Source: Nemertoderma westbladi (lineage: Eukaryota; Animalia; Xenacoelomorpha). Taken from it: a stretch of 64,000 nucleotides of DNA. Of this stretch, positions 24,032 to 50,527 are shown in pieces. Positions within the stretch are counted from its first letter, which is position 1, and each line of letters begins with the position of its first letter. The notes under the pieces were generated by a model. It had not been told where the DNA came from. It made no database searches and was given only the letters and a program-made list of their open reading frames with translations. A program made the translations under genes and the position numbers. The DNA is taken from NCBI GenBank assembly GCA_032718475.1, contig JAUCBJ010000343.1:1-64000 (forward strand). The letters run 5' to 3'.

Positions 24032-24618
24032 TGTGAGCGGATTCAATTCCGCCTCACCAACCCCCATAAAGTTGGGAAACGGCGCCTTTAAGCAATATTG
24101 GGGAATACGAGATTGATTACCAATCAACCTCGTATCACCCCAATAAACGGGGACGACAAACCCCCAAAGGGCCGCACACAATAGAGGTCAGAGGTTAAGC
24201 CTCCGGGAAAGGGAAAGTGACAGTAGCAAGGGGGAAACACTCCCACAGAGGTGGGATCCGAGAATTAGGTTATTGGCCAATGGGGGGCAAGCATCGACTG
24301 AGTAGTAAGGCCCCAAAGTAAGTAATCAATATATATTACCGGTCAGTGTCATATCACAGTTAGTTATCTCAGTCATCTAAGGCTGATCGGTGACATTTCT
24401 ATACCGTCACCACCGTCACCATCATTACCGGTACTACAGTAGAACCATACACTGTAAACTAACTACATCATACCATCAACTGTGCTATTGTATCTTATTG
24501 TCATATATTTACCGTCTACATTAATATCAGAACAACAACGAACTATTATCTTCCTTTTCCAACGGTACGGTGACGCGTAATACAAACTAACCGGTCGGGA
24601 TCCTCTGATCCCGTCACA
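24032..24618 (+). repeat. 5' LTR of the 6.1-kb BEL/Pao element
   Basis: Direct repeat of 29590-30177; CCAAT at about 24277, TATA-like ATATATATTA at about 24329, U5 hairpin CGGGATC-CTCT-GATCCCG. Confidence 0.95.
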
Positions 24619-24628
24619 GTATAGAAAT
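24619..24628 (+). promoter_or_regulatory. Non-tRNA primer-binding site candidate (self-complementary to the LTR)
   Basis: GTATAGAAAT follows the LTR directly and is the reverse complement of ATTTCTATAC at 24395-24404; there is no TGG. Confidence 0.6.
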
Positions 24629-24672
24629 CTAAGGACTGCCAAACTGTGACTGCCAGACACCAAAGAGTAAAG

Positions 24673-27600
24673 ATGAGCCAAGAGGGAGAGAGGACACCGC
24701 CGCGGACCCCGGACGACAACCTAACTATCCGCGAGGCTGCGGCGCGACGGTATCGACCCATGACGCCGGATCCGTCGACTACAGACGATCCGGCAATCCA
24801 AGCGGAGGGGGGCCATCTACAACCGAGAGGGGAAGAGTCGACGCACAGCGGCGGTCGGAGCACCGGAGTCGCCGGCCAGCCACAGGCCGAGGGCGACGGA
24901 CGGCCCAACGGAACAGCGACGGTGGGGCCGCCGGTACGACGCCGAACACGGAGAGAAAGAGGGGATGTTGGCGACGAGGACGTCGGAGTCAGCGATCGGC
25001 TCCGACGAGCCTACAACGCAACCAGAAAACAGCTGAGGGAAGCCAAAGAAGGGGCAAAGATGGAGCAGGTGAAGTTAGAGAAGCGGCTAGGTGAGTCGAA
25101 TAAACATTTTGATTATCTAGTGCGCTTTGGGCAGGGAGAACTAGCCAATGAGAGAGCGAGAGGGGTCGTCACCGAACTGTTCGAACTGTGGGAATGTAGG
25201 GGTATGGAGCCTGGTGTAGTGTACATAGGGCCATACTTAGTTGATGCCCGGGGAATTAAGTTAGTGGGTTGGAGGGGACCGCAGGAGGGCGAATCCGAGG
25301 TTAACCCCGAGGATTCGGTCTCGTCGGTCAACGAAAACCCCGGAGAGCGGGGGAAAGTTAGCAGGACAGAGAGGCGACGGGAGTCCGTCGTGACCGATAA
25401 GTCCGCTACATCCTCCGCGAAAGAAAGAAGGGTGTTAGAAATAGATCTGGTGGATCTGGTGGGGTCGAACTCCGGAAGATTGCCGTCACCCCGGAGAAAC
25501 GCACCGCACGCCAAGAGAAGGGTACAGGACGTACCGATACGAAGACGAGAACAGGAGAGGGGATCGAAGAGAAACTTCCTGACGGGATATAGCTGCCGAT
25601 CGAGAGTACGGTAGTCGCGGGGAGATTCGAGATCCGAGAAGATTAAACTTCGGTTCGGAAGGGCACATGCAGACTGCAGGACATACTGTAGGCCTTACTG
25701 CACATACTATTATAGGCCATGCTGGGAGAGATAGTGTAGGTGATAGGGTAGCGCGGACGACGGGATAAGATCCGGAAGTTGCGGAGTACATGCCTGTAGG
25801 TAGGCAAGAAGTAGATAGGCCTATATCGGTACCAGCACAGCAGCATGACTATAATATCCAGGGACATAACATATATCCAGGGGAGGGGAGAGTTATTGCA
25901 GATAGATGTATGGGCCCCAATATATTAACATCAACCCCAGTACCAAACATACCGGTGGGGGGGGGGGGGGCAGGGTGACATTCCCCCATTACAATATCAA
26001 CAATATACTCGAACAGCAATGAGTACATCGAACCCCCTGGACGAGAACAGGTCGTGCGACACGGAAATATGGAGGGGGCCATTACCCCCAATGATATATC
26101 CGACACAAGTTAGGTCAACAGACAGGACGGGCGGACCGCACCCAACGGGAGAATCTGTACAGCATCCATCGAACCCATTGGAAGCACAGGCAATGGGAAT
26201 GGCGACACTAATCGATGCACTAAAGACTAGGATCGAGTTACCACCAGTCGAGCCATTTAAATTCGACGGAAGTAGGACGGAAGAATACCTGCAATTTTGG
26301 CGCATGTACAGCAACGAGATATTAAGTAAGAACTTGACGCAGGCGGAGTGCCTAAAATATCTACAAGTGTATACAGGAGGCCCAGCATACGACATCGTGA
26401 GGCAGTACCAGGGCATCGAGGGTGGCTTCACGACAGCATGGCGGGCGCTAGACAGGGAGTACGGGCACCCGGCCAAGATCATCCGGCAGACCCTGAGAGG
26501 TATAACATCGGGTGGCCTACAGGATAACCCCTCTAGCATAAAGACGTTTGCGAACAAAGTCGAGAAGGCGTTAATCGTGCTGAAGACACTAGACGCGCCA
26601 TACGAACTCAACGCATCTAATAACATCACCACAATAGCGCAGGCACTGCCGATCTGGCTGCGGAGCAAGTGGAGGAAGATCGCCTTCTCCACTCGGGAGA
26701 AGAATGGTGCGGAGCCGGGGCTAGAGGAAATGTCAAACTTCTCAACTACGAAGCCGAGTTGATCACAGACCCAGTCTATAGTGAGGATAGTTTGGGGAAG
26801 GCGCCAAAGACCGAATACAACAGGCCTAAACCCGAACACAATCCTGCAGATCCATTCCCGAGAGTAAGACAGTCGCTACCACACGCGGCCATACAGGGGG
26901 CTACAAGCCCACAGTTAGCTGGGAGTAGGGCCACACCGTGGCAGGGACAGAAAGAAAATAACACCACAAATAAACATAATCCCAACATACCCAGTAGGCC
27001 GAATCTAGATAACCAAAACACTAAATTGGTAGATATAAACCTACGCGCGATATATGAAGGACTATACAGGGAACGCTATATTCCAGGATTCGAATGTCAA
27101 TTACATCGGGACGGAACCCATAAGACCATGAGTTGTAAGCACTGGCAAGCGTTGCCCAAACAAGATCGTATAGCCTACACAGACGCAAACGGACTATGTC
27201 ATCGATGTGTGGTAGAAGGACACAGATCCGGAGAGTGTAGAGAAACAGCAGCAAGAGAGGATGAGACTGGAGGCCAAACCATGGCTACAAGCACGACAGT
27301 AGCAAGAAAAAAGAGGAAAGTACTACTCGGGGTAGTACCTGTTAAGATATCAGGAAAGGGCGGTCGATCAGTTACAACATTAATGCTGGTCGACAGCGGA
27401 GCAGCCTTCACGCTGGTGGAGAACTGGGTGGCCAAAGAGATAGGGCTAAAGACGAGGCCGAATATGATTGCGGTAACTACCGTCTCAAGTAAGGATGAGG
27501 TCCTGGAGATGAGGATGGGGCGGTGCAAGATTAGCAGCGATAGCACCGGGATGCGATTATGGGGCGACGATCGACCCCATCCATGTGATAGAATCGATAA

Positions 27601-27830
27601 ATATCAACACCAGGCGACCAACCAACATCGAAGTCAAACAATATAGATTCCTGGACAGTATCGATTTCTCAATACCAAAGGTGGACGTTAGGAAGGTATC
27701 CATTATAGTAGGAATGGACTGCCCCACGGCCCACGAGAGAATGCAGACAGTCTTCGGCGAAGACAGATAGCGGGATCCGACGGCGATCCTCACGCCGTTC
27801 GGATGGACGCTTAGCGGCCCAGTTAAAACC
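24673..27830 (+). pseudogene. BEL/Pao gag-protease, disrupted by frameshifts and stops
   Basis: Pao Gag (DUF1759-like) FKFDGSRTEEYLQFWRMY...KYLQVYTGGPAYDIV; Cys/His knuckles CQLH...H...C and LCHRCVVEGHRSGEC; aspartic protease LVDSGAAFTLV; downstream AILTPFGWTLSGP motif. Confidence 0.85.
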
Positions 27831-27845
27831 AAGATTCCATCCGGG

Positions 27846-28478
27846 GTGACGGAGACATCAGGATGCATGTTACCAGGCACTGTAGACACAGAGGACGAAG
27901 AGAAGAAACAGGAGATGGTAGATGAGCAAGACGGGGAAGTAACAGTAGGAGAGTGGGCGGAGGAGAATGGATTTGATGCGGAAGATTTAGAGGCAACGGG
28001 ATGGAACAAGGGTCCCAGCAAGTATCGGTATGGAGATGGAGAGGAGCGGACGGCGAGATGTCCAGAGGATAACCCGGAGGAGTGTCCGGTGGAGTGTCAG
28101 GAGGACAATGGTCCGGAGGAGTGTCCAGAGGAGTGTCCGGAAGAGACGCCGGTCCGGTCGGGAGGCATACCGACAAGGGGGAGATCGAGTAAGAAGACAG
28201 GATGGAAAGGGATAGGATTACTATTGTTCGTTCTGTTTTGTCTGTTCTTTCAGTTTCGTTCCATTCTGCCGCCGGGAGGCGACCAGCCGAAGGGTGGAAT
28301 TTTGTTGCCAGGAGACGAGGAAGTTAAGAAGGCGGCGGAGAGACCCGATTTTAGGGTGGCAGAAGAGGGAGAACCAATTCCTGGTGAGTTGGAATTTGCG
28401 AAGAGAGTGTGGCGAATCCTACAGGACCTACAAGGGGAGCAGTGGGAGAGTGCCTGTTGGAAGAATCGCCCTAGTTAG
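27846..28478 (+). CDS. Acidic ORF with one hydrophobic (TM-like) segment, in place of RT-RNase H-integrase
   Basis: 210-aa ORF with E/D-rich and (PEEC)n repeats and the segment GIGLLLFVLFCLFFQF; function unknown. Confidence 0.35.
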   Translation: MTETSGCMLPGTVDTEDEEKKQEMVDEQDGEVTVGEWAEENGFDAEDLEATGWNKGPSKYRYGDGEERTARCPEDNPEECPVECQEDNGPEECPEECPEETPVRSGGIPTRGRSSKKTGWKGIGLLLFVLFCLFFQFRSILPPGGDQPKGGILLPGDEEVKKAAERPDFRVAEEGEPIPGELEFAKRVWRILQDLQGEQWESACWKNRPS

Positions 28479-29589: not shown

Positions 29590-30177
29590 TGTGAGCGGAT
29601 TCAATTCCGCCTCACCAACCCCCATAAAGTTGGGAAACGGCGCCTTTAAGCAATATTGGGGAATACGAGATTGATTACCAATCAACCTCGTATCACCCCA
29701 ATAAACGGGGACGACAAACCCCCAAAGGGCCGCACACAATAGAGGTCAGAGGTTAAGCCTCCGGGAAAGGGAAAGTGACAGTAGCAAGGGGGAAACACTC
29801 CCACAGAGGTGGGAGCCGAGAATTAGGTTATTGGCCAATGGGGGGCAAGCATCGACTGAGTAGTAAGGCCACAAAGTAAGTAATCAATATATATTACCGG
29901 TCGGTGTCATATCAGAGTTAGTTATCTCAGTCATCTAAGGCAGATCCGGTGACATTTCTATACCATCACCGCCGTCACCATCATTACCGGTACTACAGTA
30001 GAACCATACACTGTAAACTAACTACATCATACCATCAACTGTGCTATTGTATCTTATTGTCATATATTTACCGTCTACATTAATATCAGAACAACAACGA
30101 ACTATTATCTTCCTTTTCCAACGGTACGGTGACGCGTAATACAAACTAACCGGTCGGGATCCTCTGATCCCGTCACA
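29590..30177 (+). repeat. 3' LTR of the 6.1-kb BEL/Pao element
   Basis: Direct repeat of 24032-24618, preceded by the PPT and followed by TSD ATTAT. Confidence 0.95.
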
Positions 30178-30659
30178 ATTATGGATTGCAGCAATTGTAT
30201 TTTGAACAATAGGGTTAACTTTTCCTAACGAAAATGGTGGTTCAATGAACAAATTAACATTAGTTTTTAAAAATAATTTTAGTCATGTTCAACATCATTA
30301 ATACAAGGAATTCCAAATACGATATAGATATAAAGTTATTATTGAGTTTAGATGCTGTGTGATAACTAGCGGTTTATTGTGGTGGTCCAGTTGAATTTTA
30401 TATACTGTAACTGTACAGGGCATTTTTTTTACAATTTCGTTACTACCCGGTGTCTGTGAGAAAATACGTTTTCCTTGGGAAAATGTCTGGAAAAAATCAG
30501 AATAAAAAATCAGGGAAAATATTTTTAAAGTAGGCCTACTTTTTTATCTTCATTTTGTTATTTTTTATTGGGAGCTGCCGCTCCCAAACCCCAGACCCCC
30601 GTTTAGTACAATGAAACGGCTTTAACAATAATATAATATAAAGCAGAATTTACAATTAA

Positions 30660-31356: not shown

Positions 31357-31481
31357 CCTTTTTTAATTTCAAATTCTTCTAAATTCAATTGTTATTAATC
31401 AAATTTCACTAACATTTAAATAATTTGAATTTTAATTGTATCAATTAGGCATTAATTCAATTACAATTGTAAATTAGCAAC

Positions 31482-32645
31482 TGTAAAGGCTTTTGCGGAT
31501 ATAACTAGTCATTTTCCCCGCAAAGTACTCTGTAGGTGTTTTAGCGGACATAAAAAGCCATTTTTCTGTATGTGTACTTTAGCGGACATAACAAGCCATT
31601 TTATGCCGCAATACGCCAAAATACTCTTAATACAGTGTGGCTTCAGATGACGAAATCTATCAGCTGATTTTGATGTCGATGTGGAGCTTTCTTAACTCTC
31701 TTTGTTCAGCTCACTCGACCAATCAGAGCGATTTTCATTTTATTTGTACAGAAGCCTACGGGAAATCGCGCAATGCATGACGGTCTTTGTTTACCTTTTT
31801 CCTGAGCCCAGAACATCGGCTTTGGAATTATTCTTAGTTTCAGACTTTAGCCAAACATTCGACGGCTTTGATTATAGGAACGTATAACTGTTATCGCACC
31901 AGACTCATACCAACCTGACCACAAATCAGCTCATATTATACATACCTTTCACCGCATTATTTTACTGCTATTTACTGTCGGTTATTAATTGTTAGAAGTT
32001 GATGGATATGTTGTTATATTTGGAGAATATCGATAAATAATCATAAAACCCCAATCTTCTTGATATACTGAAGGTTAGAGAGACCGGTTACCTGTAGCAA
32101 TTGCGACTTACATTATAGTGGTTTTGGAGTGAATTGAATGCTATTTCATAATCCCTACATGTGTCAGTTACTATTCTCCTTATATATGATCAAATTTAGT
32201 GAAGGTCGGCAGATCAGTGTGCAGCAGTGTGCGGTAGTGTGCATGAGTGTGACAGATAACAAAGCATTTCCTAAAGAATGCGCTTTATACGAAAATCATT
32301 AGCCATCCCGTTGTGTTTAGTGTAAGTCATAACTCTGTTTACATACTTAGAGCGCCACGTCCTAAAGGAACTGTTAATATTTCCCGAAAGTAAATAATAT
32401 TTGTCAGAGATTATATATTAACGATCAATCGAATAGTACAGTAAGTCTACACCGCAATAAGGTCAGAGCCTCCGAATCCAGTCTCCCTTAACTGTGGGTG
32501 AATGGTCGCGCATAGGCTGGCTTCGGCTAATGTAACTTTATATCTTATATGCAACAAATACTTGTTATAGGCTAAAGTCGATTTATAAACTAGAAGACAC
32601 CTAAAATTAGCGGGTTAAACTGCTAAAGGTCTAAAAGCGCGAACA
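31482..32645 (+). repeat. 5' LTR (1164 bp) of the 18.3-kb element
   Basis: Near-identical to 48609-49826; U3 carries repeats of about 41 bp (TTTTAGCGGACATAAAAAGCCATTTT), with one more copy in the 3' LTR; CCAAT at about 31719. Confidence 0.95.
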
Positions 32646-32657
32646 ATAACAGTTATA
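32646..32657 (+). promoter_or_regulatory. Non-tRNA primer-binding site candidate (self-complementary to the LTR)
   Basis: ATAACAGTTATA follows the LTR directly and is the reverse complement of TATAACTGTTAT at 31883-31894; there is no TGG. Confidence 0.65.
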
Positions 32658-34578
32658 TTAGTTTCTTTATTGCAACGTAGGCAATAAAGTCGAAAGTACC
32701 GGTCGACCGGTAATCTGTAGGCCTAACTACATAACCACCCGAACCGGTACTTACAGCAGTACAAGTACAGCAGTATTATTCGATTTTGGTAATTATATAC
32801 CGGTAGGTCTTGATATTTAATCAGGGACTGCAGCCCTGGTTTTTTATTGGGATTTTACTTATTTCTGTCAGTTTTATTTATCTGTAAGTTAATATTGAGC
32901 AGAAGGCGTGTAAGCCTGCTCAGATTGTATAAATAATTTGTAGGCTGGATTGTTGTCTGGTTGTTGTTAAGTCTGAAGAGATTGCAGTGTGTGTAGAGTG
33001 TATGTCCGATAAAGTACTAGTTAGGAACGTGGGACATCCAGAGCTGTAAGGTAAATCCCCCCCCCCCCCCCCCCCCGAAAGAATAAGTCGTACTACTCAG
33101 TTAGAACGCATACTAACTAACCATTTCGGAGTCTGCATATACTGTAGTTTATTTAGGCTTGATAGTAGTCTGCCAGCGTTTGGTCTGTATTTTGTTTGTG
33201 TAGTCTGTACGGGTAGCGTAATATTTATTATTCAGAGTTTATGCGATTATTCGCAACATACACAACCCCAAGTTTATTCCTACAGTAATTGTGCTTGTTA
33301 TACATACTGTTATAGTTAAATTAACCCCGGCACTACATCAGGGCTGTTTGGCATAGGTAAAGACTGGTGATTTTATGCTCTAGTCACTCCAGCAGATACC
33401 GTGGTTCTTTTAGCTGTACAAGTATTTTTAACTGCTGGTTATTTGTTGTATAAGTACTTGTACCTAATTTAGGGTTTAGTGTACAGTGCTTTCCGAAGGT
33501 AATTAGTTTGTAGGCAGTATATTTGTGTTGTAAAGTGGTTAATAGGCACGTTAGCTATAGTTGGCTGCGGTAATTAACTTCTAGGTAGGAACACTCCGGG
33601 TACATAACGTAGTACTTATAGAGCTGTAAGCTAGAGACTATAAGTCGTCAGACGGTGGTATTTTCTTATCTAGACAACGCAATATATTTACTACTGCTTA
33701 ATTATTTTCAAATACCGTAGTATCCTGTCCGTTGTAAAAACCAGAAATTCTAACCCCTTGTTAGGCTGGTTTGTAGATTTCTTGTAAAATTAACCCTAAA
33801 ATTTGTACGTGTAATTTTTGTGTTTATTTAGAGATTGTAATCTCATCCCTTAATTGTACGTAATTTGTAGTAATAAGTAACTTAATAAATTAGAATTATT
33901 TGTTTTAGTGTCCAATAAGTAGCACTCCACTGAGAGCGTTCAGCTTCTGTGAAGTGACTCCTTATCTAGAAATAATAACATTTATTTCGAATATTGTCAA
34001 AACCCATTAAACGGGTATATATATTATATTATAAATCAACTCAAACCGATTTACATAATAGTAGGCCTGTTATACATAAATTAGGTCTTAATATCAGTTG
34101 GACTACTGCTTAAATAACGGTAATAAAGTGAAGTAAAGTAACTAGGTAACCCTAAAATTCAGAAATTCAATTATTCTAAAATAATTGACATACCGGTATT
34201 TACGATAGGCTTATTATATTTATTCTATAAATTTATGCTGAAATTATATACCGGTATTCTGTAATTAATTTAGTCTATAATTATACTTATATATACTACA
34301 AGTGTAAGCTGTATACCGGTATTCACGGTAGGCTTATTATATATTTATATATATTTATGCTGAAATTATATACCGGTATTCTGTGACAAACCCTAGTCTG
34401 TAATAATACATATATATATACTATAAGTGTATACCGGTATTCTAATATATTGTATATATATCACGTTACACTGAGTAACGATATCGGTAATTAATTACTA
34501 GGCTTTTAATTGATACTGAATTACTAGACTTGCTTTAACTGTAGTTCTAGCAGTAGGCATTCAACTGTACAAACAAAC

Positions 34579-37500
34579 ATGGCTGACACAAAGCAAAACC
34601 TGTCAGACAGTCTCCTAGATACAACCATCTGTGATCCAGATAGGAGTGCGGAACGTTTGAGACCGAAGTTCAACTCCCCTCCTACTGTAAGAAAGGTCAT
34701 CCCTCCAGTAGTAGTATCAGACCCTAGGCTAGTAAAGTACCGTAGGTCTATCATAGGCACTCGGGCTCAAGTCAAGCGGGACCAAGAGGCAGCTGTTAAA
34801 CAACAGCAACACCCGAGCCGAGAACTTATTTCTCAGCGGCCCAATAGCTCCAGTAGTTCAGATACTGTAGAGTTGACACCCGAGCGCGGAGCAAAGATGG
34901 CAGAAGCGGTTTATTCGGATCCACTTCTCATTCTTCCTGCAGCCGTACTCACTAGGGTATTGATTGCGGTGGAGGAACACCAAATGGATTGGGCGAGAAG
35001 TAAGCGATCAACCAAGGACAGTTATGCGGGATACACAAGGGAGGAACTGAAGTCTATTGTCGAGACGCAATGGAACTTCCCCAGACCCAGACTCCCGTTT
35101 AACTTATCGGAAGCTGCCTGGGAGGACTTATACAGGATGGGAGTGGTAAGGGCACAAGAGATCCAGCTGTGTGGAAGAGGTTGGCAGCAGGATATGTACA
35201 GGGATTCTTCAGCTCTTTGGAGCGATTAGAGGAACAACTGTTTCAACAACCCCAAGGACCTCAAGAGCAGGGAGAGCTGCTTTATCAAGTTCGAGAACGT
35301 ATCCTAAGAATCAGACTGATCCTATCGGCCTTTGAGGAAGCTTCGAAAAGAGGCCAAGACACGTTGTTGCAAGTTGCCGTAAAGACTTGGTTCCAGCGGG
35401 TGGGTCTCAAAGTTCAAGGAACGTCCCAGTGGAAATTTCAGTTGGCTGAGCGCTCAACCCACGGAGAATCAACAGACGCTACCTTTTCTCAAGTGGAAAG
35501 CGAAGCGACAGCAGAGAAACCTCAGAAGAAGGACGCTATTGACATATATCTGTCGGACTATCAACGATTTCTAGGTGACGAAGAGTTGAGGAGACGGCTG
35601 GCTGGACTTCGTCCTAATAGTGAACGAGCCAAGTTTGTGTTGGACGCAATAGATGCGGAAAGGTTAGAAGCGGATCGAGCTAAATTTGATGAAAGAATCC
35701 GCATCGTTAGGGAACAGGAAGAACAATTAAAGAAAAAACAAATAGAAGACAGAAAGGCAGCAACAGCAGCAGCGGCAGAAGTGAAACGAAAAGCTGCAGT
35801 AGCAGAGGCAGAAAGAAAAGCGGCAGCGGCAGCGGCAGAGGCAGAAAGAAAAGCGGCAGTGGCAGAGGCAGAAAGAAAAGCGGCAGCGGCAGAAGCCGAA
35901 AGAACTGCGGCGGAGGCAGTGTTAGAAGCAGAACGGAAGGCATCTGAAGAGACAACCCAACTAGAGTTGGAAAATCTTCAAGAGAAGCAAGACTACTTAA
36001 ATAAACAGATAACAGCTAGTCAGATGCAGCTGATAAGTCGATCTACTCCCAAGCGACAGGGATTTACATCATCTGATGAAGGCGAGACAACAGATCCTGA
36101 AGGCGGAGGAAATAGATCTCGTCTCAGCAGGCGTAGAAGAACGCCTCACCGTCAGAAATTGCCTAATTTGCCCCCAGCCGTGAGAAGGCAACTAGCTAGC
36201 ACAGACTTAGGTAGTACAGAACCCACAGACCAAATTATTAGAGTTGAAAGACTCCCTACTATAGTAGATGAGCCTGAAATAATTAGACCTGTTCTCGAAG
36301 CCACCCCTTCTGTGATAGAGACCCCTGTACTTCCAGAACCTAACTCTAAATTCCCTTTGCACAGTACTAAACTACCTGTATCCAGTAGGACAGTTCCTCA
36401 GTCAACTCTGGTCCTGGACGCCGAGCGAGACATTAACAATTTGTCACCCGTCGTCCCTCGTCTACCCGCTACTATGTTGGCGGCTCCCGCTTCGGCGGTA
36501 GAGTGGGTGGATGAGCGACGGCGGGGGATGGATATTCTCCTCGGGCAGATAGAGGAGAATCAGGCACGCTCCTCCCAGCAGGTCCGAGAGTTGGAGGGGA
36601 CTGTTCAACAGTTAAGGGGAACAGTAAGAGAGAGTAGGTTAGAATTACAGGAAGTGCAGCAGAGTATCGCGTTAGAATGAGATAAGTTAGTAAATCTACA
36701 AAAGGGTGTACCACCACCCTCTGTAACAATGTGTCAACCTGTTAGGTCTGAAGTATTTCATGCGCAAGGTGTGGAGCCTACACGCCTCTATACTGCTAGT
36801 GAAGTAGAAACTCCTATAGTAAACCCTAATAAGGGTAATTATAAACCTGTTGGCAATGATATTCCATATAGACCTGATAATAATCCGAGAAATTTATATA
36901 CCGATAACTCGATATTAAATAATACGATGGCTCAAGAAAGTTTTACGCGTCAAATGGCTAGAACTGAAGCCCGTCAAGCGGTAAAGGTGGGAGAGATCGT
37001 CAAGTTCAATGGAGATGAGATGAAATGAAATGGTTACCATTTAATGAATATTATAAAGATAACATACAGAACTCTGTGCTATCTAACGGAGAGAAACTTA
37101 GATTCCTCATCGAGTGCTTGGAAGGATCTCCCAAGTTAATGGCGTTAAAGTTTATTGGACATCCAGATGGATTAAGACAAGTTTGGGATACACTAAACAT
37201 CAGGTATGGTAATAGGAATAACATAGCTAGGTATTTGTATGCGAAATTGGTAGCGCCCCGAAAGTTTCTTAGCAGCGGGATTATAGAATTTTCCGATGAA
37301 ATCCAGGAGATTTGTAGACAATTAGATTGGCTAGGTAAGTCTCATGAATATCAGAGTTCTATGGTTATTGGAGCTGTAGCATCTACCTCGCCAAAGGGTG
37401 GAGTGGGTACTCGTTGGGACAAAAGAGTTCTATATATAATGGAACAACAACGAAGAGACCCTACCATGGCTGATCTCATGTCATTCTTGGATGGAGAGGT

Positions 37501-38811
37501 AAAATTACAGCTCCTAAAGCAGTCCAGAGAGAAGACACCGGAAAATAAGGTAAGTGAGAAACCCGTTTCTAGGAGAAAGGTAACACCAGTGTGTTATACA
37601 GATGATGGCGAAAGCCAAACCTCTCAAGAGGAGAGCAATGGGAAAGACACTGAAAGATCTTACTATGTCAACAAAACACCAAAGGATGTAAGTAAATTTA
37701 AGTCTCGAACCAGTGACAGGAGAGAACAGACAACAAAAACTCCTCCCACGTCTCCTAAGAGAGTTCATGGAAGAAAGCCCGAGGAAAAAACGAGTGTGCA
37801 CAACACTACCCAAGGTAAAGTAAGTAACATCAAACCAAAATGTGCTTTGTGCGACGGGCCCCACCGTTTAAGTGTGTGTGAGGAATTCTTAAAGAAATCC
37901 CTGAAGGATAGACGCGAAGTCATGTGGGATAAGCGGTTGTGTTATAATTGTCTCAGACAAGGACACCAACGGCGAACCTGTTACTCCGACGCAAGGTGTG
38001 TGAAGTGCGGCACGAAACATCATATTTTGTTGCACACCGAATTCGAAAGAAACAGCCCGAGTCAAGTAAGTGAGTCCGAACTACATGTCCAATTCAGTGA
38101 TGTGAACGACACTGACCTCAGTTCTGAGATGGAAGGATTCTACACGGATGAATTCTCCGACGAAAACAAATCCTGTTATCTAATAAACACCGCAGTGTAT
38201 CGAGCACTTACGTATGAGACTGAAACTGATAGTGAGCTCCCCCTAACTATTCCAGACCGACAACCATCTTGGAAAGCGCCAACTTCCAACGTAGGAATCC
38301 GAGAATTTCCCGTAGTGCAGTTGAGAGTCCACGGGTTAGAAAAGAGCTATATAGTGAACGCCCTCCTTGACTCCGGCAGCACAGGAACATTCATCGACAA
38401 AGAACTAGCCGAAGACATCTTTGCTGGACAACCCAAGTTCCGAACTAAATTGAACCTTTCAGGAATTATGCAGGTTTGGAAATCTACAGTAACTACAGAC
38501 TACTATGTAGGCGCGTTGTCCACCCCCCAGGATGAACTAGGAGAACACAGTATAAGGTCAGTAAAAATGGTGGCGATAAAGAACTTCGCTACCAGCCAAG
38601 TGAAACCTTATAACTGGGATGAAGACGATTTCACCCAGCAGCATGAGATACCTAGATTCAACACCGACTACCCAGGGGTACAAATACTCATCGGCCAAAA
38701 TGCGCATGAAGCGCTTGAGACATTATAGAAATGGCCTGCTCAACCGCAACCACTGCAAACCTATGCGGGAAGAACCAGAGTAGGTTGGTACTTTACTGGA
38801 AAGGCTACCTA
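34579..38811 (+). pseudogene. BEL/Pao gag and protease (disrupted)
   Basis: Long coiled-coil N-terminus; DUF1759-like KFNGD...WLPF...LSNGEKLRFLIECLEG; three Cys/His knuckles (CALCDGPH...C, CYNCLRQGH...C, CVKCGTKHHILLH); protease ALLDSGSTGTFI. Frameshifts at about 35200, 37025 and 38810; stops at 36678 and 38726. Confidence 0.92.
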
Positions 38812-38828
38812 AAGAGCAAGTCTACCAG

Positions 38829-41800
38829 GTGAGTGAATGGGAAGGGGAAATCAGTGAAGGAGACGACACACCTGAGGGAACACCATATTCCTCAGACAAT
38901 GACGATATTAATCAACTATTCGACAAGGAGAATACCATCGACCTCCTTACGGAAAGTGAAACTTGGCAAAACCAAGTGAACCTGTGTCACCTCATCCATC
39001 CAGCGGGACAAGTCGATTACAACAACGAACTGAATGAAGTGATAGATCGTTACAACGCGAAGACTCGCGATGAACACGCCGTACGATTCTTTACTCAAGA
39101 GGCTGTAGAGCCCAATTCCTACGATAAGGCCCTATCGGTAGAAGAGGAAAGAGCCAAGCAGATACAGGAAACGACTACACGTTTTCTTAAAGATCAAGGT
39201 AGGTATGAGATTGGTCTGCCTTTCCGACGGCAACCCAATTTTATAAACAACCGACCCTTGGCGGAGAAGAGAATTGCGCAACTCCATCGATGCCTTACGG
39301 CAAATGCTTCAGCTAAGGAGATGTACCAGACCCAGCTGAAGAAATTCATTGACAAGGGATATGCGGAGCGAGTACCGGAAGAAACACCTATAACTGAGAG
39401 AACGTACTATTTAACACATCATTACGTTCCCAAACCCGGTAAACCCAACGAAGTCCGGGTAGTATTTGACGGCTCTGCCCTCTACATGGGACAATCCCTT
39501 AACTCCGAGTTGTTGCCGGGACCCAACTTACTCCAATCCTTGTTGGGAATACTCTTAAGATTACGACAATATTCGATCGCTTTCGCCTCCGATATAGAAG
39601 GCATGTTCTTACAAGTTAAGGCGCTGGATAAGGATCGGGACAGCCTACGATTTCTGTGGTGGCCTGAAGGAGACCTCAACCAGAAACCGGTGGAGTACTG
39701 GATGACCATTCAGGCTTTTGGGATCATCTCGATATATACATGGACGACAATTTAAAGTTCCTCCCATCAGTGGAAGAAGCCATTGATGTCGCCAAAGGAA
39801 CGGTAGAGTGCTTGAAAAGAGGTGGATTTCGATTAACTAAATTCACCAGTAACTCCCGTGAATTTCTGGAATCGATCCCGGTAGAAGACCGAGGAGTTAA
39901 AGATCTAGACCTTATCAAGGACGATCTTCCAGAAACCAAGACGGTTGGTTTGAAATGGGACACAGAGAGAGATATCCTGTTTTTCCAGCTAAAACAGCGA
40001 GATAATCCAGTTCGGACTAAATGGATTTGTCTAAGTATCCTGAGCACTTATTTCGATCCATTGGGATTTATTAGCCCAGTTATATTGATTGCTTGGAGTT
40101 TAGTACAACAAATGTGGCTTGAAAACCACTCGTGGGACGATCCACTTAAGGGAGAACTATTAAAGAAGTGGATGAAATGGGAAGATTCTCTACCATCTAT
40201 CGAGAATTTTACGATTTCCTGTTCATATTTTGGTCATGTTCTCCCCACGTATTCCTACCAACTCCATGTGTTTGGAGACGCCAGCGATATGGGAATAGGT
40301 ATAGTAGCCTACCTGAGAGTTGAAACTCCGGATGGAATTAAGGTCGCCTTGGTTACCTCTAAGGCCTTGATAAACAACAAGTTGAAAGTTCCTGGAGCGG
40401 AGTTAAAAGCAGCTCTATACGCTACGGCCATCGGCCGGAATGTAACAGAACAGATCGACTATCCACTGGAGAAAACTGTCTATTGGACCGATGCTTTACT
40501 CGTGTTGGAGTATATAACCAATGAAGTCTGTCAGTTCAGCGTCTTCATTACCAACAGAGTAGCCATTATACTTAGTCGCACGAAGATAGATCAATGGAGG
40601 CATTGCCCTGGGACGATTAATCCAGCCGACATCGCCTCCAGGGGAGCAACTCCACAAGAACTGATAGATACTCCAGACTGGTTAGGTGGACCCGACTTCC
40701 TAAGCAAGGAAGAGGATGAATGGCCTCCTCATCTTACTACGGCGGAGATTAGACAAGCCAAGGGAGCGGAGAAAGTCAAACCTAAAACCCGGGCGAGTAA
40801 ATCGAAGTTATTTAAACCCGTGATAGATCTGTCTGTACTACACACTTCCGGAGACGACGTTTTGGATCCAAAATCCCCAGCCACAAACAAGTCTGTTGTG
40901 GAAATCAGAGAGAGAGATTGGAAATCTGGAACACCAGACGTCTCGCAGGGACTCTCACCCCTCCTGCAGAGAGCGATACATCACTATAGCTCCTGGAATC
41001 GGCTTTGTAAGGCTGTTGCTTATTTAAAGCGATGTTTTCATCATCACTACTCCAGGACGAAGATCGCTAGTGATGCCGCTCCACTGACATCTGCGCAGGT
41101 CCATGTTGTTAAAGATCTTCCCAAATACAAGATATCAGACAGATTTCTGAAGGAGAGGATCAGTTACCAGGAGCATGAAGAAACAAATAAGCAGATACTG
41201 AGACTCCTGCAATGCTATGAGGATTCCGATAAGTATTTCCTATTGTTGAGAAATCCACAGATGCGCTTAAGGGATCGTTTCTCTAGCACAATGATAGATG
41301 GGTTAATACGCGTTGGAGGAAGACTAACTAATGCTCCATTATCCTTTGACACTAAGTTTCCCATACTCATTAGAAATCTTGAAATACAAATCAAGATGAT
41401 TGTAGATGTTCACAGTAAGCTTTACCATGCTGGTAGAGAACGAGTTCTTAGCGAAATTCGAACTCGCTATTATTTTCATAAACCCCGTAGAGCTCTGAAC
41501 CAAGTTCTTAGGAACTGCATACCCTGTAGGAAAGCATTCAGTAGGCCTTTAACACAGCGAGAGACAGAATTACCTAGGGAACGAGTAAGCTTCTATGAAC
41601 CACCCTTCACAAATACCGGTGTGGATTTATTTGGCCCTATTGAAGTATATCGTGCTAGGACTATAGTCAAGAGATGGTGTGTCATCTTTGTCTGTATGAC
41701 TTGTAGAGCTATCCATCTCGATATGGTGAACGATCTATCTACCAACAGCTTCATACTGAGCTTACGCCGACAGATCGCTCGCTTTGGAACTAGTAACACG

Positions 41801-42622
41801 ATGAGATCTGATAAGGGAACGAACTTCATTGGTGCCAACAATGAAATCAAGGCTTACGTCAAAGATTGGAACCAAAGACAGGTGGACGATCAGCTAAGGG
41901 TAACAGCGTCTAGCTGGACCTTCAACGCCGCCGACGCCCCTTGGTGGGGAGGAAGTTGGGAGAGATTAATCAGAAGCGTGAAGACCGCATTTCACTTTAT
42001 AGTGCCGTGCCGCGTGTATCTCACCGACGAACTTTTGCGGACGTTAATGGAGGAAATCGCCGCCTATCTCAACGAGAGACCGCTTATGCCAGTCTCATCG
42101 AGTCCCGATTCCCTGGAAGCGCTAACACCCACGCACTTCCTACTGAAGAAACCTGTAGCCATGCTCTCACGATCGGAAATCACGGACGGAGACGAATACT
42201 GCCGGCAAACTTGGCAACTTATGCAGTTGTTATCCTGTCGTTTCGCTGACCATTTCGAAAAACATTATCTGCCTACGCTACAACTTCGAACTAAGTGGTT
42301 TGCGCAGCAAGAAAGCGTCAGCGCCGGAGACATGGTCCTTATTGTGGAGTCAGATCTTCCACGTAAGCGGTGGCAGACAGGTCGTATCATCGAGACTCAT
42401 ATCTCAGATGACGGTTTGGTGCGATCGGTAGAACTCGTCGTCATGCGACGTAACTTTAAGAAACCTGGAATTGTGTTCGAAACACAACAATTCAATCGCC
42501 CAGTTGGTCGTTTATGTTTACTGGAAAGAGACAGAGAACTCTCCGGAAACTATAGAAGGCAAGATACTCTTCCCACGACCACCTCCCTAATCCAACCAAC
42601 ACCCAGGGACTCCCCAACGTAA
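38829..42622 (+). pseudogene. BEL/Pao RT, RNase H and integrase (apparent deletion and frameshift inside RT)
   Basis: YYLTHHYV.KPGK..EVRVVFDGS, SLNSELLPGPNL, DIEGMFLQV, YMDD (about 39737), LHVFGDAS, WTDALLVL, WRHCPGTINPADIASRG, integrase H..GRE...C..C, TGVDLFGP, SDKGTNF, WWGGSWERLIRSVK. Confidence 0.95.
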
Positions 42623-44325: not shown

Positions 44326-47300
44326 ATGACTGAGTTGATAGAAGATGATCTTGGTATCAGGGAGCGATATACTCTACCGTTACAAGCGTTTGTTGATAGC
44401 TTAATACGCGGCGACGCTAGCCCAACTACTACGGAATCCGCTGGTCTTTATATCGAACCGCCAATGTCCCAGGAGCAACTCACGCGTGAATTGGACTATA
44501 GAAAATTCACTGCTCGCTATACGCATCATAATGGTACGTATATGGACTTCTTAACTACTGGCCATCCTATCGATTTACACGACACGGACGATGTAGACAC
44601 CGAAAGGGAAATGGTTTTATTTAAATATCATACCCAGCAGAGTCGGAACGATAAACCGAGAATAGAACACGAGAATTCTATTCGAAACCGACTCGAAAGA
44701 GAAGAAGTTGAAGAGCCGGATAAATGCAGCGACTTCAACGATTATCTGGAATTCTTGAGAGAAACATATCTCAATATTGCCAGTCAACAGAATCTAGAAA
44801 CTCGATATCCTCAAGGTATACATCATGACCCCATGATAGAACTCAAACGGCTCTATTTCACCATGATGTATCTTACCGCCGATCGTCCACTACCTGTTAT
44901 CCCGGATAGTTTTGAACAAATGGAAGAATATTGTAAAACTGGAGAACGATCACCCGCGTTTCCCTTGCAAGACGTGCGTCTTTGGTATTACTGTGATGAA
45001 TGCCCTAGACCCAACCAGCAAACGGAAAGACATAAACATCCGCGGAGACGTTGCGCTAAACACAGTTTTACTCGTTATACCTATGGGAGTTTCGAGCGAA
45101 ACTTGTTCGACGTATCACCTACGCTCGCTCGACTCAAACGATCCTTAAATAAACCCATGATCAGAGTTCCGGAATACTTGGTCAGACCTCCTCATTCCTT
45201 AGTGAGACCTCAAACGCTTGATCCTAATAGTATAACGGATCCCCCTGAATTGTACTCACTATTTAAAGATCTTGTGTTACCCGAACAATTAATCGGTGGC
45301 ACTCCGGTAGTGGACTCGCTAGATATTCGCCCATCCTATCTAGCCGGATTGGGACGCGGGCATCTAATATCGCCGTTCAACCCGTACAATCGTCCCGGTT
45401 TAACCCCGATACAACCCGTCACCGAAGTCGAGGAGAGCGTTGTACGAAACGCGTTAGACGCTATTCGGCAGAATATCGGAAAAGGAACTTACGATTGTTT
45501 AGAGAAACGCAAATTGCAGCAACAAGTCCAAGCGGTGAAGGAATTAGCTTTACCCCAGTTCGATCGAGAAATCCAGAACCTCGAGGAAGACATCGATCTT
45601 GGACGAACCTATTCTCTACAAGAGTTCCTAGATGAGCGTTTACAACGACAAGCGGAGGAAAATCAGCTCGAGGAGAAACACATAGAAATGGATGAGAGAG
45701 AAGAAGCAGCTTTAGCCCAGCCAGAAGCTCAAATCCTTATGACTGATCTCTATTCTAAAACCATCATTCATCCTTCGATGGTTCCCCATTTCGGAGACAA
45801 ACTCTTCGCCACGGCACAACCTCAACTGGTTGATATCAACCTAAGATCTCGAGATCTTATCGCTGACGCTCCTATGTTGCAACATCCGCCTATCGAGGCC
45901 GCTCGTGTCAACGGTATACTCGTTGAACCTCCGGACAATAGAGCGGATCTTGTCCGTCGTATGGTACACGAGGTTAACATACGCGCTAGACCTTTACCGA
46001 ACTCGTTTTATGGGATCAAAGATCACCCTTATTATGTCAATCTAACTCAATATTACATGGTAAAACCGGAAGATCCTACACATAGTCTAAGGTTTCTACC
46101 ACTAATAAATCCTCTCGATCTTGTCGAACTCGAACAACTGCAGAAACATCTGGATCAGTTAGTGAAAGTAAACTCATTCCGAAAACCCTATAATGTTTCC
46201 AGAATAGAGAAGGATATAATACCTCCGTATAATCTCGATGGATTTATCAAAACTCGATTAGTCCACTGGAATCTCGACGTGTTATTCGAGGAGGAGAGAA
46301 TACAACGATATGGAGATGTAGAAACATATACTACACAGTATTTGAAGTATAGAGATCTACCTAACGCTAGCGAATGCACCACCTTGTGGCATCCAGTGGG
46401 AATGACCCTAGAAAACGCCACTAAAGAGTGGAACGAAACACTTAACGTTATAGAGATGTATGGAGTTGTCACTTATGATAACGAAGGTAGCGTTCTGGTT
46501 GGAGAACTGGGAACTACGCGCATGATACATATACGAGGACTAGCTGGTTCTACCCACGTATTTACTCAAGCATGTTCCGACGTGATTGATTATTCTTTTG
46601 AGACCCTCACCGAGATACAAAAGAAACTCCGACATGGACAATTCGAACTCGTGCAGCGTTACGTCACTGACACCGAGCGCAAACCGGCCATGGGTATTGA
46701 TGGATCGATGTTACCCCAGCCCGTGCTCGAGATGTTGTTTAACGAAAGAATCCTTAAAATCGGCTCAGCTGTTTATGGAGATCTCCAAAATGACTTTAGG
46801 AACATGGAGAATATCCCATATCCTTTCGTAGATACTCAGCTGATTGCTCCCTGGGCAGAAGGCCGAGGTTTCTTCCGCACTATGTATGCCAATACACCCA
46901 GCGGTATCACTAAAGTACAACGAACCTCCATCGGACATCTTGCCTTTCAAGAATACGGATGGAATTTCAAGGTCGGAAATCCTATCAACTATCAACAAGT
47001 ATATGGAGATCATTATTCTCGATTATACTTCGATGGACCATTGACCGCACCTGGTGTCGTGTATAGCTTCATGAGTGTTCCACTTCGTCCCTCCTTAGCT
47101 ATATACACGATCTTTGAAAACGCCACACTTGCCGGTTGGCTAGCTGATGTGTGCAGTCGTACTATACGCGCCCATCCCTTAATACTTGGAACCAAACTCG
47201 CCAAGCTAGATGAACACAATAAATTCATCCGCTTCGAATGTTTCAGGCGCTTTCTGACTCCGTTCCGTAACGTTGATAGTCAGTTCAAGGACCGCGCTCT

Positions 47301-48531
47301 GACCAAGCTCAGACTAAGAGCTGAGAAGTTAGACAGCGCTGGATTCGCCATTTTCCAGGATGTTTGTATACAGAACTTACATTCCTCTGTTATACAAAGA
47401 CCTCGAATCCCCACGGGTTATTCTATCGTGGAAGTTCAGACAGCGGGTTCGCTTGAGGAGACAGCCACACCTATCTCAGCTATGCAACTGGAAGACGAAC
47501 CAATATGCTTAGAATCCGAGGAGATTCAGCCTACAGCGCCCCGGAGCAGCGACAACGACTACGTCTTGGAATGGTATCAAGGTCCACAGTGTCTCACCGC
47601 ATACAATTATCGGCATGCCAACTATGTTTCTCGAAAACGTTGCCGATTATGTGCATCGAGAGATCATTTCACCCCCATGGACTCAGACGTACCCTGCTCC
47701 TATTTCCATGAACAACCGGCGATGGAGATCTATTGTGCGTATTGCAGACTCAATAACTTGCACATTTTCGCAGTCTGGCCCCAATTTATGACTCAATGCC
47801 ATCATTGTCAACTTAAAGGACATGCCAGTTTTGATTGCCCTTTTAACCGCGATCTGGAAAGCGTAGATGTAATGACTACCCTACGCTACATCCGAGCTTG
47901 GGAAGCGAATGCGGATTTACATTGTGAGTCACGCCATCGCTATCCTTATCTATTCGCGTCTGTTGAACAAAAATCACGCACACCGAGTTACGAACTAATG
48001 AAGCGTGTTGGTGAGTGTATTTCAACCAAATTTGTTCGTAAATATCTCAGGAACATTAATCCTAATGATATTAATTCCTATAACTTGATTAACTTCATCC
48101 GTCAAGATCCGGAGTATGGCGATTTGTTCATCAACTCGCATCCAGAGTTACAGGAAGTGCATCGACGGCCCTACAAATATCGAGCCCGAGAACGCGAGTT
48201 GGAAAGAACCATTAAACAGAGGAAGTTTCTCACTACCCATGGTCCACCCACCGCTCTCATTCAGACGACTCATCAGGGACCAGTAAGAGCTGCTGTCCTG
48301 AAACGCGCTCTAAAGGCCATCCGACCTCGCTCCACTGAGGTTGATATCGATCAACCAGGTACCTCGACCGGCGGATACACCGACCATAATCCTAAACCTT
48401 CCGATGCAATTGTATTGCACCCTTCACCCAGGAGTTATAGCCCTCCTAGTAAAGTGGCTCGCCCCAAAGAGAAAAGGACTCTTGCTAGCCTCAAAAAACT
48501 GCGTAAACGCCGTCCGCTCAAGAAAGACTAA
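44326..48531 (+). CDS. ORF3 of the BEL/Pao element: 1401-aa protein with a DEDDy/DnaQ-like 3'-5' exonuclease domain and Cys/His zinc-knuckle cluster
   Basis: An uninterrupted 4.2-kb ORF between integrase and the PPT. ExoI-like VVTYDNEG (about 46465-46488), LPQPVLEMLFNERILKIGSAVYGD (ExoII-like), FVDTQ, SIGHLAFQEYG, ExoIII-like IYTIFE; then CRLCASRDH, CAYCRLNNLH and CHHCQLKGHASFDC. Confidence 0.8.
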   Translation: MTELIEDDLGIRERYTLPLQAFVDSLIRGDASPTTTESAGLYIEPPMSQEQLTRELDYRKFTARYTHHNGTYMDFLTTGHPIDLHDTDDVDTEREMVLFKYHTQQSRNDKPRIEHENSIRNRLEREEVEEPDKCSDFNDYLEFLRETYLNIASQQNLETRYPQGIHHDPMIELKRLYFTMMYLTADRPLPVIPDSFEQMEEYCKTGERSPAFPLQDVRLWYYCDECPRPNQQTERHKHPRRRCAKHSFTRYTYGSFERNLFDVSPTLARLKRSLNKPMIRVPEYLVRPPHSLVRPQTLDPNSITDPPELYSLFKDLVLPEQLIGGTPVVDSLDIRPSYLAGLGRGHLISPFNPYNRPGLTPIQPVTEVEESVVRNALDAIRQNIGKGTYDCLEKRKLQQQVQAVKELALPQFDREIQNLEEDIDLGRTYSLQEFLDERLQRQAEENQLEEKHIEMDEREEAALAQPEAQILMTDLYSKTIIHPSMVPHFGDKLFATAQPQLVDINLRSRDLIADAPMLQHPPIEAARVNGILVEPPDNRADLVRRMVHEVNIRARPLPNSFYGIKDHPYYVNLTQYYMVKPEDPTHSLRFLPLINPLDLVELEQLQKHLDQLVKVNSFRKPYNVSRIEKDIIPPYNLDGFIKTRLVHWNLDVLFEEERIQRYGDVETYTTQYLKYRDLPNASECTTLWHPVGMTLENATKEWNETLNVIEMYGVVTYDNEGSVLVGELGTTRMIHIRGLAGSTHVFTQACSDVIDYSFETLTEIQKKLRHGQFELVQRYVTDTERKPAMGIDGSMLPQPVLEMLFNERILKIGSAVYGDLQNDFRNMENIPYPFVDTQLIAPWAEGRGFFRTMYANTPSGITKVQRTSIGHLAFQEYGWNFKVGNPINYQQVYGDHYSRLYFDGPLTAPGVVYSFMSVPLRPSLAIYTIFENATLAGWLADVCSRTIRAHPLILGTKLAKLDEHNKFIRFECFRRFLTPFRNVDSQFKDRALTKLRLRAEKLDSAGFAIFQDVCIQNLHSSVIQRPRIPTGYSIVEVQTAGSLEETATPISAMQLEDEPICLESEEIQPTAPRSSDNDYVLEWYQGPQCLTAYNYRHANYVSRKRCRLCASRDHFTPMDSDVPCSYFHEQPAMEIYCAYCRLNNLHIFAVWPQFMTQCHHCQLKGHASFDCPFNRDLESVDVMTTLRYIRAWEANADLHCESRHRYPYLFASVEQKSRTPSYELMKRVGECISTKFVRKYLRNINPNDINSYNLINFIRQDPEYGDLFINSHPELQEVHRRPYKYRARERELERTIKQRKFLTTHGPPTALIQTTHQGPVRAAVLKRALKAIRPRSTEVDIDQPGTSTGGYTDHNPKPSDAIVLHPSPRSYSPPSKVARPKEKRTLASLKKLRKRRPLKKD

Positions 48532-48608
48532 CTGTTTAGAGTATTTTTATATTTTAGAAACTGTGATTTTTATATTTTATAGAATTAAATCCCATTTTCT
48601 GGGAGCGG

Positions 48609-49826
48609 TGTAAAGGCTTTTGCGGATATAACTAGTCATTTTCCCCGCAAAGTACTCTGTAGGTGTTTTAGCGGACATAAAAAGCCGTTTTTCTTACTGT
48701 GTAGGTGTTTTAGTGGACATAAAAAGCCATTTTTCTGTATGTGTACTTTAGCGGACATAACAAGCCATTTTATGCCGCAATACGCCAAAATACTCTTAAT
48801 ACAGTGTGGCTTAGATGACGAAATCTATCAGCTGATTTTGATGTCGATGTGGAGCTTTCTTAACTCTCTTTGTTCAGCTCACTCGACCAATCAGAGCGAT
48901 TTTCATTTTATTTTGTACAGAAGCCTACGGGAAATCGCGCAATGCATGACGGTCTTTGTTTTACCTTTTTCCTGAGCCCAGAACATCGGCTTTGGAATTA
49001 TTCTTAGTTTCAGACTTTAGCCAAATATTCGACGGCTTTGATTATAGGAACGTATAACTGTTATCGCAGTGCCAGACTCATACCAAACTGGACACACAAA
49101 TGCAGCTCATATTATACTATACGTAACTTTCACCGCATTATTTTACTGCTATTTACTGTCGGTTATTAATTGTTAGAAGTTGATGGATATGTTGTTATAT
49201 TTGGAGAATATCGATAAATAATCATAAAACCCCAATCTTCTTGATATACTGAAGGTTAGAGAGACTGGTTACCTGTAGCAATTGCGACTTACATTATAGT
49301 GGTTTTGGAGTGAATTGAATGCTATTTCATAATCCCTACATGTGTCAGTTACTATTCTCCTTATATATGATCAAATTTAGTGAAGGTCGGCAGATCAGTG
49401 TGCAGCAGTGTGCGGTAGTGTGCATGAGTGTGACAGATAACAAAGCATTTCCTAAAGAATGCGCTTTATACGAAAATCATTAGCCATCCCGTTGTGTTTA
49501 GTGTAAGTCATAACTCTGTTTACATACTTAAAGTGCCACGTCCTAAAGGAACTGTTAATATTTCCCGAAAGTAAATAATATTTGTCAGAGATTATATATT
49601 AACGATCAATCGAATAGTACAGTAAGTCTACACCGCAATAAGGTCAGAGCCTCCGAATCCAGTCTCCCTTAACTGTGGGTGAATGGTCGCGCATAGGCTG
49701 GCTTCGGCTAATGTAACTTTATATCTTATATGCAACAAATACTTGTTATAGGCTAAAGTCGATTTATTAACTAGAAGACACCTAAAATTAGCGGGTTAAA
49801 CTGCTAAAGGTCTAAAAGCGCGAACA
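48609..49826 (+). repeat. 3' LTR (1218 bp) of the 18.3-kb element
   Basis: Direct repeat of 31482-32645, followed by TSD GCAAC. Confidence 0.95.
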
Positions 49827-50527
49827 GCAACAATCAGACAATTAGGCAAATTATAAATATTTCATTAACTATATAGACAGTACAAACAAAATAAAGAAAC
49901 AATAAACAAAACAAAGTATAGTGTACAAAAGGCACTAAACAATTAAAGATTACAAAACTCGATAAACAATTAGAGAATTAAAGAGTACAAAATACAATAA
50001 ACAATTGAATTGAATTAAAGTAAACAAACAGCAATACAACACTACAGTACCAGTACCAGAAAGACATTTTATTACATTTCTATGAACCCTAGTCATCATA
50101 TCCACCTAACCAAAGTTGCATAAGAGAGGTTTCTAAGAAAATATTATGAAACTAGTGTCATAAATAGGGAAACGATTGGCCCACGCTAATTTCAGCTATC
50201 CGCTCGCTGCATGACATGTTATTTAGTACACCTTGCTGAGGCCTAAGCGTTTTGCATGACATTTCTCTCGTATCTCATCTGGACCAATCAGGAAACAGTA
50301 TTCGACTACGCGTATGCATACGCGTATGTCAAAGCGCTCAATGTAATGTATAGATTCGTGGTTACGTCAGAACATACGTGGATACGTACGGCGTACTGTA
50401 TGTTGAAAAGTAAAACCCTTACATCAGTACCGGTATACTGCAGCACTGGCTGACTCGTGCTGTCGTGGTACGCCTACCGCAGTACCGGTACAGCAGTAAC
50501 AGCATACAGTGCAGCAGCGATACAGAA

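Follow-up and report, generated by a model that had tools for sequence, protein, structure and literature searches.

Tf1 uses the 5' end of its own mRNA as the primer for reverse transcription, held in a structure of three duplexes (PMC10085805), and a full copy of its primer-binding site (PBS) remains at the 3' end of about half of its cDNA (PMC11042837). Tf1 and Tf2 of Schizosaccharomyces pombe, Tj1, and the Tf1/sushi and Tcn1 groups all have a PBS directly after the 5' LTR that pairs with a segment of the LTR and does not start with TGG. A published rule for putative self-primers asks for at least 10 bp of complementarity starting 0-5 nt after the LTR (PMC6317226). The same source extends the prediction beyond the chromoviral Gypsy elements to the plant Ty1/copia TAR lineage (Houba, Osr-1), where LTR and PBS are complementary in the same way and self-priming is likewise predicted from sequence. 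The BEL/Pao elements are described differently. The ICTV account of the Belpaoviridae gives them an 18-nt PBS for tRNA-Arg or tRNA-Gly and a length of 4.2-10 kb, and calls them tRNA-primed with a poorly understood replication (PMC8742986). The initial annotation of the DNA discussed here knew of no report of self-priming in BEL/Pao, and we found none in the open-access literature, leaving aside the primary Tf1 papers, the Cer7 report, Repbase, GyDB and supplements; in passages of PMC554778, PMC3118150 and PMC6238403 neither a PBS nor a tRNA is mentioned.

The window is a stretch of 64,000 nucleotides from Nemertoderma westbladi (contig JAUCBJ010000343.1, positions 1 to 64,000). Two of its retrotransposons concern us, element A and element B (Table 1), and both have the TG...CA LTRs and target duplication of BEL/Pao. 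Element A occupies 31482-49826, or 18,345 bp including both LTRs. By its proteins it is a BEL/Pao retrotransposon, as had been claimed for an element of 18.3 kb. Pfam finds DUF1759, Peptidase_A17 (E 2e-32), Integrase_H2C2 and DUF5641, the Gag and Pol domains are of BEL/Pao type in the order PR-RT-RH-IN, and the RT-RNase H part has 117 protein matches. These are BEL/Pao polyproteins of at most 43% identity, nearly all with PF05380, and the named ones come from animals. With gag and pol split over several broken frames, element A is a giant and defective BEL/Pao copy. Its two LTRs differ by 6 substitutions, 9 insertions and 1 deletion. A U3 tandem repeat of about 40 nt has two copies in the 5' LTR (31529-31602) and three in the 3' LTR (48652-48771). 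Splice-donor-like strings at 32073, 32321 and 32441 and an acceptor-like one at 32571 were seen by eye in the LTR downstream of the predicted primer. Subgenomic mRNAs could make use of them, and about 1.9 kb of leader precede gag.

Element A also carries an extra open reading frame downstream of pol. We treat its assignment as an exonuclease as weak, a lead only. By language-model features the middle of the product resembles 3'-5' exonucleases (0.86 for the whole, 0.92 for residues 690-1000), which would put the exonuclease-like domain at about residues 700-950. Among 1.84 billion representatives there is a single homologue, in which a weak match to exonucleases (E 0.2) and a zinc knuckle follow each other as they do here. 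PDB returned nothing for the frame and Pfam nothing for its exonuclease-like part, and a single-sequence structure prediction reached a pLDDT of 32.

The rest of the window contains a 1013-aa ORF with C2H2 zinc fingers at 10495-13536 (minus strand), satellite arrays at 52732-56052 (period 21), 57149-59227 (period 63) and 59560-59952 (period 12), and a 930-aa ORF without a Pfam match at 60595-63387 (minus strand). The internal region of another LTR element starts at 63628 and is cut by the window end at 64000; we take it to be a Gypsy element. The initial annotation had pointed to its TGG PBS at 63629 for contrast with element A. A CA end does precede that site, and the ORF that follows has a gag match, to DUF7041.

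The claim at issue is that element A has no such site. The 12 bases after its 5' LTR are indeed the exact reverse complement of a 12-mer within the LTR, and they do not start with TGG; the 12-mer recurs in the 3' LTR at 49053-49064 and nowhere else in the window. A 9-bp hairpin follows the PBS, as had been noted. The match is 12 nt at offset 0, inside the published range for putative self-primers. Among 4000 dinucleotide shuffles of the LTR none matches over 12 nt at offset 0 and 7 do so at offsets 0-3; when the PBS position is slid further downstream, 0 of 1000 positions reach 11 nt. When the 823-nt leader is folded, 11 of the 12 PBS positions pair with the 12-mer at a probability of 0.82-1.0. 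Eleven of the 12 bases form an odd palindrome, which makes the site a near-direct repeat of the PBS as well. A spliced primer was tried for element A and rejected (6 nt against 12 contiguous). We believe that a stretch of element A's own LTR RNA likely primes minus-strand synthesis in place of a tRNA, and judging from sequence comparison we would give this reading a probability of about 0.86.

Table 1. Positions of the features of elements A and B and of a tRNA-like gene in the window.
Feature	Position	Strand	Remarks
tRNA-Asn-like gene	6234-6305	-	ARAGORN; may be a pseudogene or SINE head
Element B target duplication, ATTAT	24027-24031 and 30178-30182		
Element B 5' LTR	24032..24618	+	587 bp
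Element B predicted self-primer	24395..24404	+	10 nt, ends in AC; copy at 29954-29963
Element B primer-binding position	24619..24628	+	no TGG; reverse complement of 24395-24404
Element B coding region	24625..28478	+	DUF1759 gag and protease
Element B 3' LTR	29590..30177	+	588 bp
Element A target duplication, GCAAC	31477-31481 and 49827-49831		5 bp
Element A 5' LTR	31482..32645	+	1164 bp, TG...CA ends
CCAAT-box match	31717..31725	+	166 nt upstream of the predicted primer; no more than a hint of an upstream promoter
Element A predicted self-primer	31883..31894	+	12 nt, ends in AT; contiguous, intron-free
Variable segment	31896..31945	+	starts just after the predicted primer; varies strongly among family copies and between A's two LTRs
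Element A primer-binding position	32646..32657	+	no spacer, no TGG; reverse complement of 31883-31894
Hairpin shortly after the element A PBS	32665..32689	+	9 bp
Element A gag-protease region	34580..38728	+	several broken frames; DUF1759, weak aspartyl protease match
Element A pol	38784..42622	+	broken (frame change, shortened RT core); RT, Peptidase_A17/RNase H, integrase zinc finger, DUF5641
Element A extra ORF	44326..48531	+	open, ~1400 aa; likely DEDD-type 3'-5' exonuclease-like domain, CCHC knuckles
Short purine-rich tract ahead of the element A 3' LTR	48601..48608	+	
Element A 3' LTR	48609..49826	+	1218 bp, TG...CA ends; second copy of the 12-mer at 49053-49064

Element B provides a second case in the same window. 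It spans 24032-30177, and its 6,146 bp fit the ICTV range of lengths. Its match of 10 nt at offset 0 also lies within the range for putative self-primers, and LTR shuffles equal it in 3 of 4000 cases at offset 0 and in 6 of 4000 at offsets 0-3. The site has different letters from that of element A and is not palindromic. Cross-pairing gives only 6 nt for the PBS of A against the LTR of B and 5 nt for the reverse. The gag and protease of the two elements are barely alignable (best E 4e-4), so divergent is element B. A TGG of the kind expected for a tRNA-Arg or tRNA-Gly site is absent directly after the LTR of both. The duplex of primer and PBS in element B is weak (-8.7 kcal/mol), and a spliced primer was rejected here too (4 nt against 10 contiguous). 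Element B encodes a gag and protease of BEL/Pao type and has no pol, since neither an RT nor an integrase family turned up on the four ORFs scanned. The place of pol in its 3' internal region (28551-29321) is taken by tandem repeats that are rich in purines and have periods of 8-74.

Relatives were sought with a 35-row alignment in metagenome contigs, and what follows concerns the best 80 of 611 confirmed loci in 20 of the 64 parts of the collection; 33 stretches from viral contigs yielded no confirmed relative. The LTR end is fixed by two LTR copies in 7 of the 80 loci, one of which (L005) has a TGG site. The six without TGG all match their own LTR. With A and B this set stands at 8 of 8, with matches of 10-12 nt that at most 4 of 300 shuffles equal in each case. 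Four of the eight are contiguous, A and B among them, and the other four, all relatives, match only across introns of 71-164 nt whose donor is GTAAG and whose AG acceptor is pyrimidine-rich. A blind scan of 14 further loci, which have an LTR start and no given end so that every CA was tried, reached 11-14 nt in 13 of them (each equalled by at most 2 of 40 shuffles); the one it missed, L064, has 12 nt at offset 6 by eye. For L033 a spliced 11-nt match was chosen by eye over a longer blind hit downstream, and L021, L025, L030 and L076 were dropped as copies of families already counted. The 24 loci with partial LTRs, L005 included, have no clear self-match except for 10 nt in L074. The primer analysis leaves aside the remaining 32 of the 80, mostly loci without a 5' region. 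The initial annotation had reasoned that relatives with a TGG site or without complementarity would speak against self-priming. Four relatives do have TGG (L005, L006, L019, L072), while complementarity is found in every fixed-end relative that lacks it; TGG-like strings in L023, L032 and L034 are not tied to an LTR end.

Twenty elements can be tabulated, 9 contiguous and 11 spliced, with L010 and L064 not included. The match starts 0-4 nt after the LTR in 20 of 20 and is 10-13 nt long. The primer ends in A and then C or T in all 20, the next base being C in 14, and it lies 46-751 nt from the LTR end (751 nt in element A). This A-pyrimidine end agrees with the start of the Tf1 PBS, ATAAC (PMC11042837). 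Positions 32646-32650 of element A are the same five bases, by chance or through a shared cut-site preference. All 20 PBSs are distinct, and they reach at least 10 nt against the LTRs of other families in 1 of 380 comparisons, own matches having been selected for length. The co-variation that had been proposed as a check is seen between families only. We conclude that the complementarity of PBS and LTR is a real feature that belongs to a broad BEL/Pao branch, and that A and B represent its form without an intron, the relatives with spliced primers showing the same pattern. Element B and the relatives, whose changed PBSs match their own LTR only, lend support to the original proposal of tRNA-independent priming by LTR RNA.

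Several peculiarities of the relatives can be recorded here. The LTRs of L010, L015, L022 and L039 hold a same-strand copy of 9-10 nt of the PBS, within the last 80 nt of U5 in L010, L015 and L039. Short tandem duplications lie right after the predicted primer end in L015 (2083-2130), L021 and the L063 LTR, with a copy number that differs between L015 and L021. In L076 units of 6138 bp, each with one LTR, follow one another head to tail, which could come from tandem insertion or from the assembly of a one-LTR circle.

The steps of self-priming in element A can be proposed by analogy with Tf1. Transcription would start at or upstream of 31883, and the primer would probably be internal to a longer capped leader. 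The 12-mer would anneal to 32646-32657, either in cis, over 751 nt, or with a second packaged RNA as partner. The RNase H of the RT would cut after the A-pyrimidine end, the freed 3' OH would be extended by the RT through U5 and R, and the strong-stop DNA would jump to the 3' LTR. In LTR elements the PBS is regenerated when the primer is copied during plus-strand synthesis. Here that step would restore a matching PBS in each cycle, so PBS and LTR would co-vary, and the PBS could hold an exon-exon junction copied into DNA even though the intron is retained. The intron would persist because its place upstream of the cut lets it be copied again out of the 3' LTR. Where a PBS complements an exon-exon junction, the simplest account is that spliced element RNA stood at the primer position and was copied into DNA.

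The tree of these elements has 43 rows and 683 columns. Left out were the loci with no primer call except L079, duplicate families, 100 of the 117 protein hits, and element B, which lacks pol and whose gag scores fewer than 90 bits. A well-supported group (100/99) holds 19 of the 21 self-type elements. Element A (branch 1.9) and L033 fall outside it without firm placement, beside TGG-type loci, and by path element A is nearest to L005 and L006, which are of the TGG type. Element A is a long branch inside a group of 37 rows (100/99), and four of the six rows outside that group are named arthropod proteins. The tree needs at least 1 change between self and TGG and at least 6 between contiguous and spliced. 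A tree that forces the self-type rows into one group is not rejected (p-AU 0.209), which is no proof of a clade.

Further evidence comes from family A in sequencing runs. Four runs, at most three samples of which one may be the window's source, were compared. Three are DNA runs with contigs by the thousand on the element A LTR, so family A is abundant and diverse. The summed depth of run X1 over the 3' LTR falls from about 75,000 (49060-49064) to 9,500 (49065-49069) and to zero by 49075, and X2 and X3 behave alike. In three samples the family A contigs keep to the LTR up to where the 12-mer ends; beyond it they break off or diverge. Among the pieces listed 19 of 26 end at 49063-49066, and their loose ends run on as diverse A/C-rich sequence. 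Contig joints from 31895 to 31946-31971 agree with divergence after the 12-mer; in one contig type of low depth the divergence begins within the site, after 49054. Of the differences between the two LTRs of element A, 6 lie within 50 nt after the primer and 10 elsewhere; assembly error could explain these. The 40 of 214 differences considered do not show the two 12-mers to be invariant, and the comparison of contigs over the 3' LTR filters out differences near contig ends, where the site lies. The LTR pair of L004 has 58 differences, none of them in the 12 bases up to the primer end. The stretch after the primer is not a mutation hot spot in general, 6 of 10 LTR comparisons having no change there. 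The divergence of family A after the 12-mer fits a point of cutting and strand transfer, and the variable segment is a candidate scar. The fourth run, presumed to be RNA and available as contigs, has no cover upstream of about 31920, which is not evidence on the start site.

It is important to separate the match itself from the structures around it. The initial annotation had paired the bases after the 12-mer (CGC and AGAC) with the end of U5. This pairing is found in the fold of this copy, but against shuffles it is unexceptional (z -0.4 and -0.9). Flanking duplexes of the Tf1 style in element A are not above shuffles either (z -0.4, -0.9, 0.1), and over 21 rows the mean z is -0.35 for both, with z < -2 in 2 and 3 rows; the fixed windows of 25-45 nt can miss more distant partners. 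Since family copies diverge directly after the 12-mer, the R-U5 stem has to be given up as a conserved feature of the family. The caveat that no convincing TATA box lies about 30 nt upstream of 31883 was correct, and element A has only the CCAAT match. Five of the 20 elements have TATA-like boxes within 220 nt upstream, at 49-144 nt and none at 25-35, so the missing TATA in element A is no objection. The spacing argues weakly that the primer is probably internal and not the RNA 5' end.

The strongest competing explanation is that the pairing is structural or regulatory (serving packaging, dimerization or a switch by which the site is hidden), with priming left to another primer. Dimer-initiation sites are palindromic, and the PBS of element A is an almost perfect palindrome of that kind. 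The PBSs as a set are slightly richer in palindromes than shuffles (at least 6 paired bases in 8 of 20, P ~0.02), and the minimum-energy fold of element B prefers a stem between U5 and the downstream leader that hides its PBS (pairing probability mostly <0.3). We nevertheless consider this explanation improbable. Against it stand the constant position and length of the match and its fixed A-pyrimidine end, no TGG replaces the match at the PBS position, and an exon-exon junction in DNA exactly there is the trace expected of primer copying.

A fragment of a host tRNA or a half-tRNA, for example from an AT-rich mitochondrial tRNA, might instead be the primer and the LTR match secondary. The primer of element A contains what we take to be a string like an Asn-type anticodon loop. 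Half-tRNA priming exists in Copia lineages (PMC6317226). Twenty PBSs would then need 20 different host fragments, each also matching its own LTR only, and 11 of the 20 match a splice junction. The sole tRNA gene in the window matches the PBSs of A and B over only 4 nt, and Rfam gives no tRNA-like gene in 23500-50500, its two hits being at chance level. We find the idea very hard to maintain. Least probable of all is a match in element A that arose by chance or as a repeated palindromic site for DNA binding, for although the 12-mer is AT-rich and so palindromic as to be nearly identical on both strands, the shuffles of A and B, the non-palindromic site of B and the recurrence in relatives largely refute it.

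Priming by the element's own LTR RNA is thus the reading we prefer, and we are inclined, with some reserve, to go further. A large branch of BEL/Pao in aquatic animals may have swapped tRNA priming for an internal self-primer, released by RNase H, with a fixed A-pyrimidine end and without the pretzel of Tf1. Its families would have switched repeatedly between a ready-made primer, as in element A, and one built by the spliceosome (the 6 changes on the tree), with splicing as a licence for replication, and the variable stretch of family A would be a DNA record of the cut site. If a broad BEL/Pao branch does self-prime, the mechanism has arisen in each of the three LTR superfamilies. The tRNA-binding site through which LTR elements are targeted by host tRNA fragments (PMC7472051) would be lacking in self-type elements. 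Element finders that require a tRNA match would mis-score them. The cut site is predicted to the base for 20 elements, and splice-built primers would link retrotransposition to host splicing, both of which can be tested on RNA.

How new this would be depends on the comparison with known systems. We know from its Pol that element A is BEL/Pao, and no chromodomain family was found in it, so it is not a member of Tf1/sushi, which are Ty3/gypsy chromoviruses. In contrast to Tf1, the flanking duplexes are not conserved here, the primer is probably internal and separated from the LTR end by 46-751 nt, and many relatives build it across an intron. The BEL/Pao element Cer7 of Caenorhabditis elegans is said to supply its own primer from a tRNA-like sequence elsewhere in the element and not from an LTR segment, whereas the primer sequence of element A is found only in its LTRs. 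The exonuclease-like ORF has a parallel in ORF3 of the bdelloid elements Juno and Vesta, a DEDDy exonuclease that is also an extra 3' ORF of an LTR retrotransposon, but these are rotifer lineages with other pol genes (PMC5408684), and the frame of element A is about 1400 aa and weakly assigned. Element A resembles the Belpaoviridae in its LTRs, DUF1759 gag, PR-RT-RH-IN order, Peptidase_A17, DUF5641, purine tract and animal-type relatives, and differs from the ICTV description in having no tRNA PBS, a length of 18.3 kb and the exonuclease-like ORF in the place of env. We believe the BEL/Pao self-primer would be best seen as a further form of self-priming, in elements that have been described as tRNA-primed.
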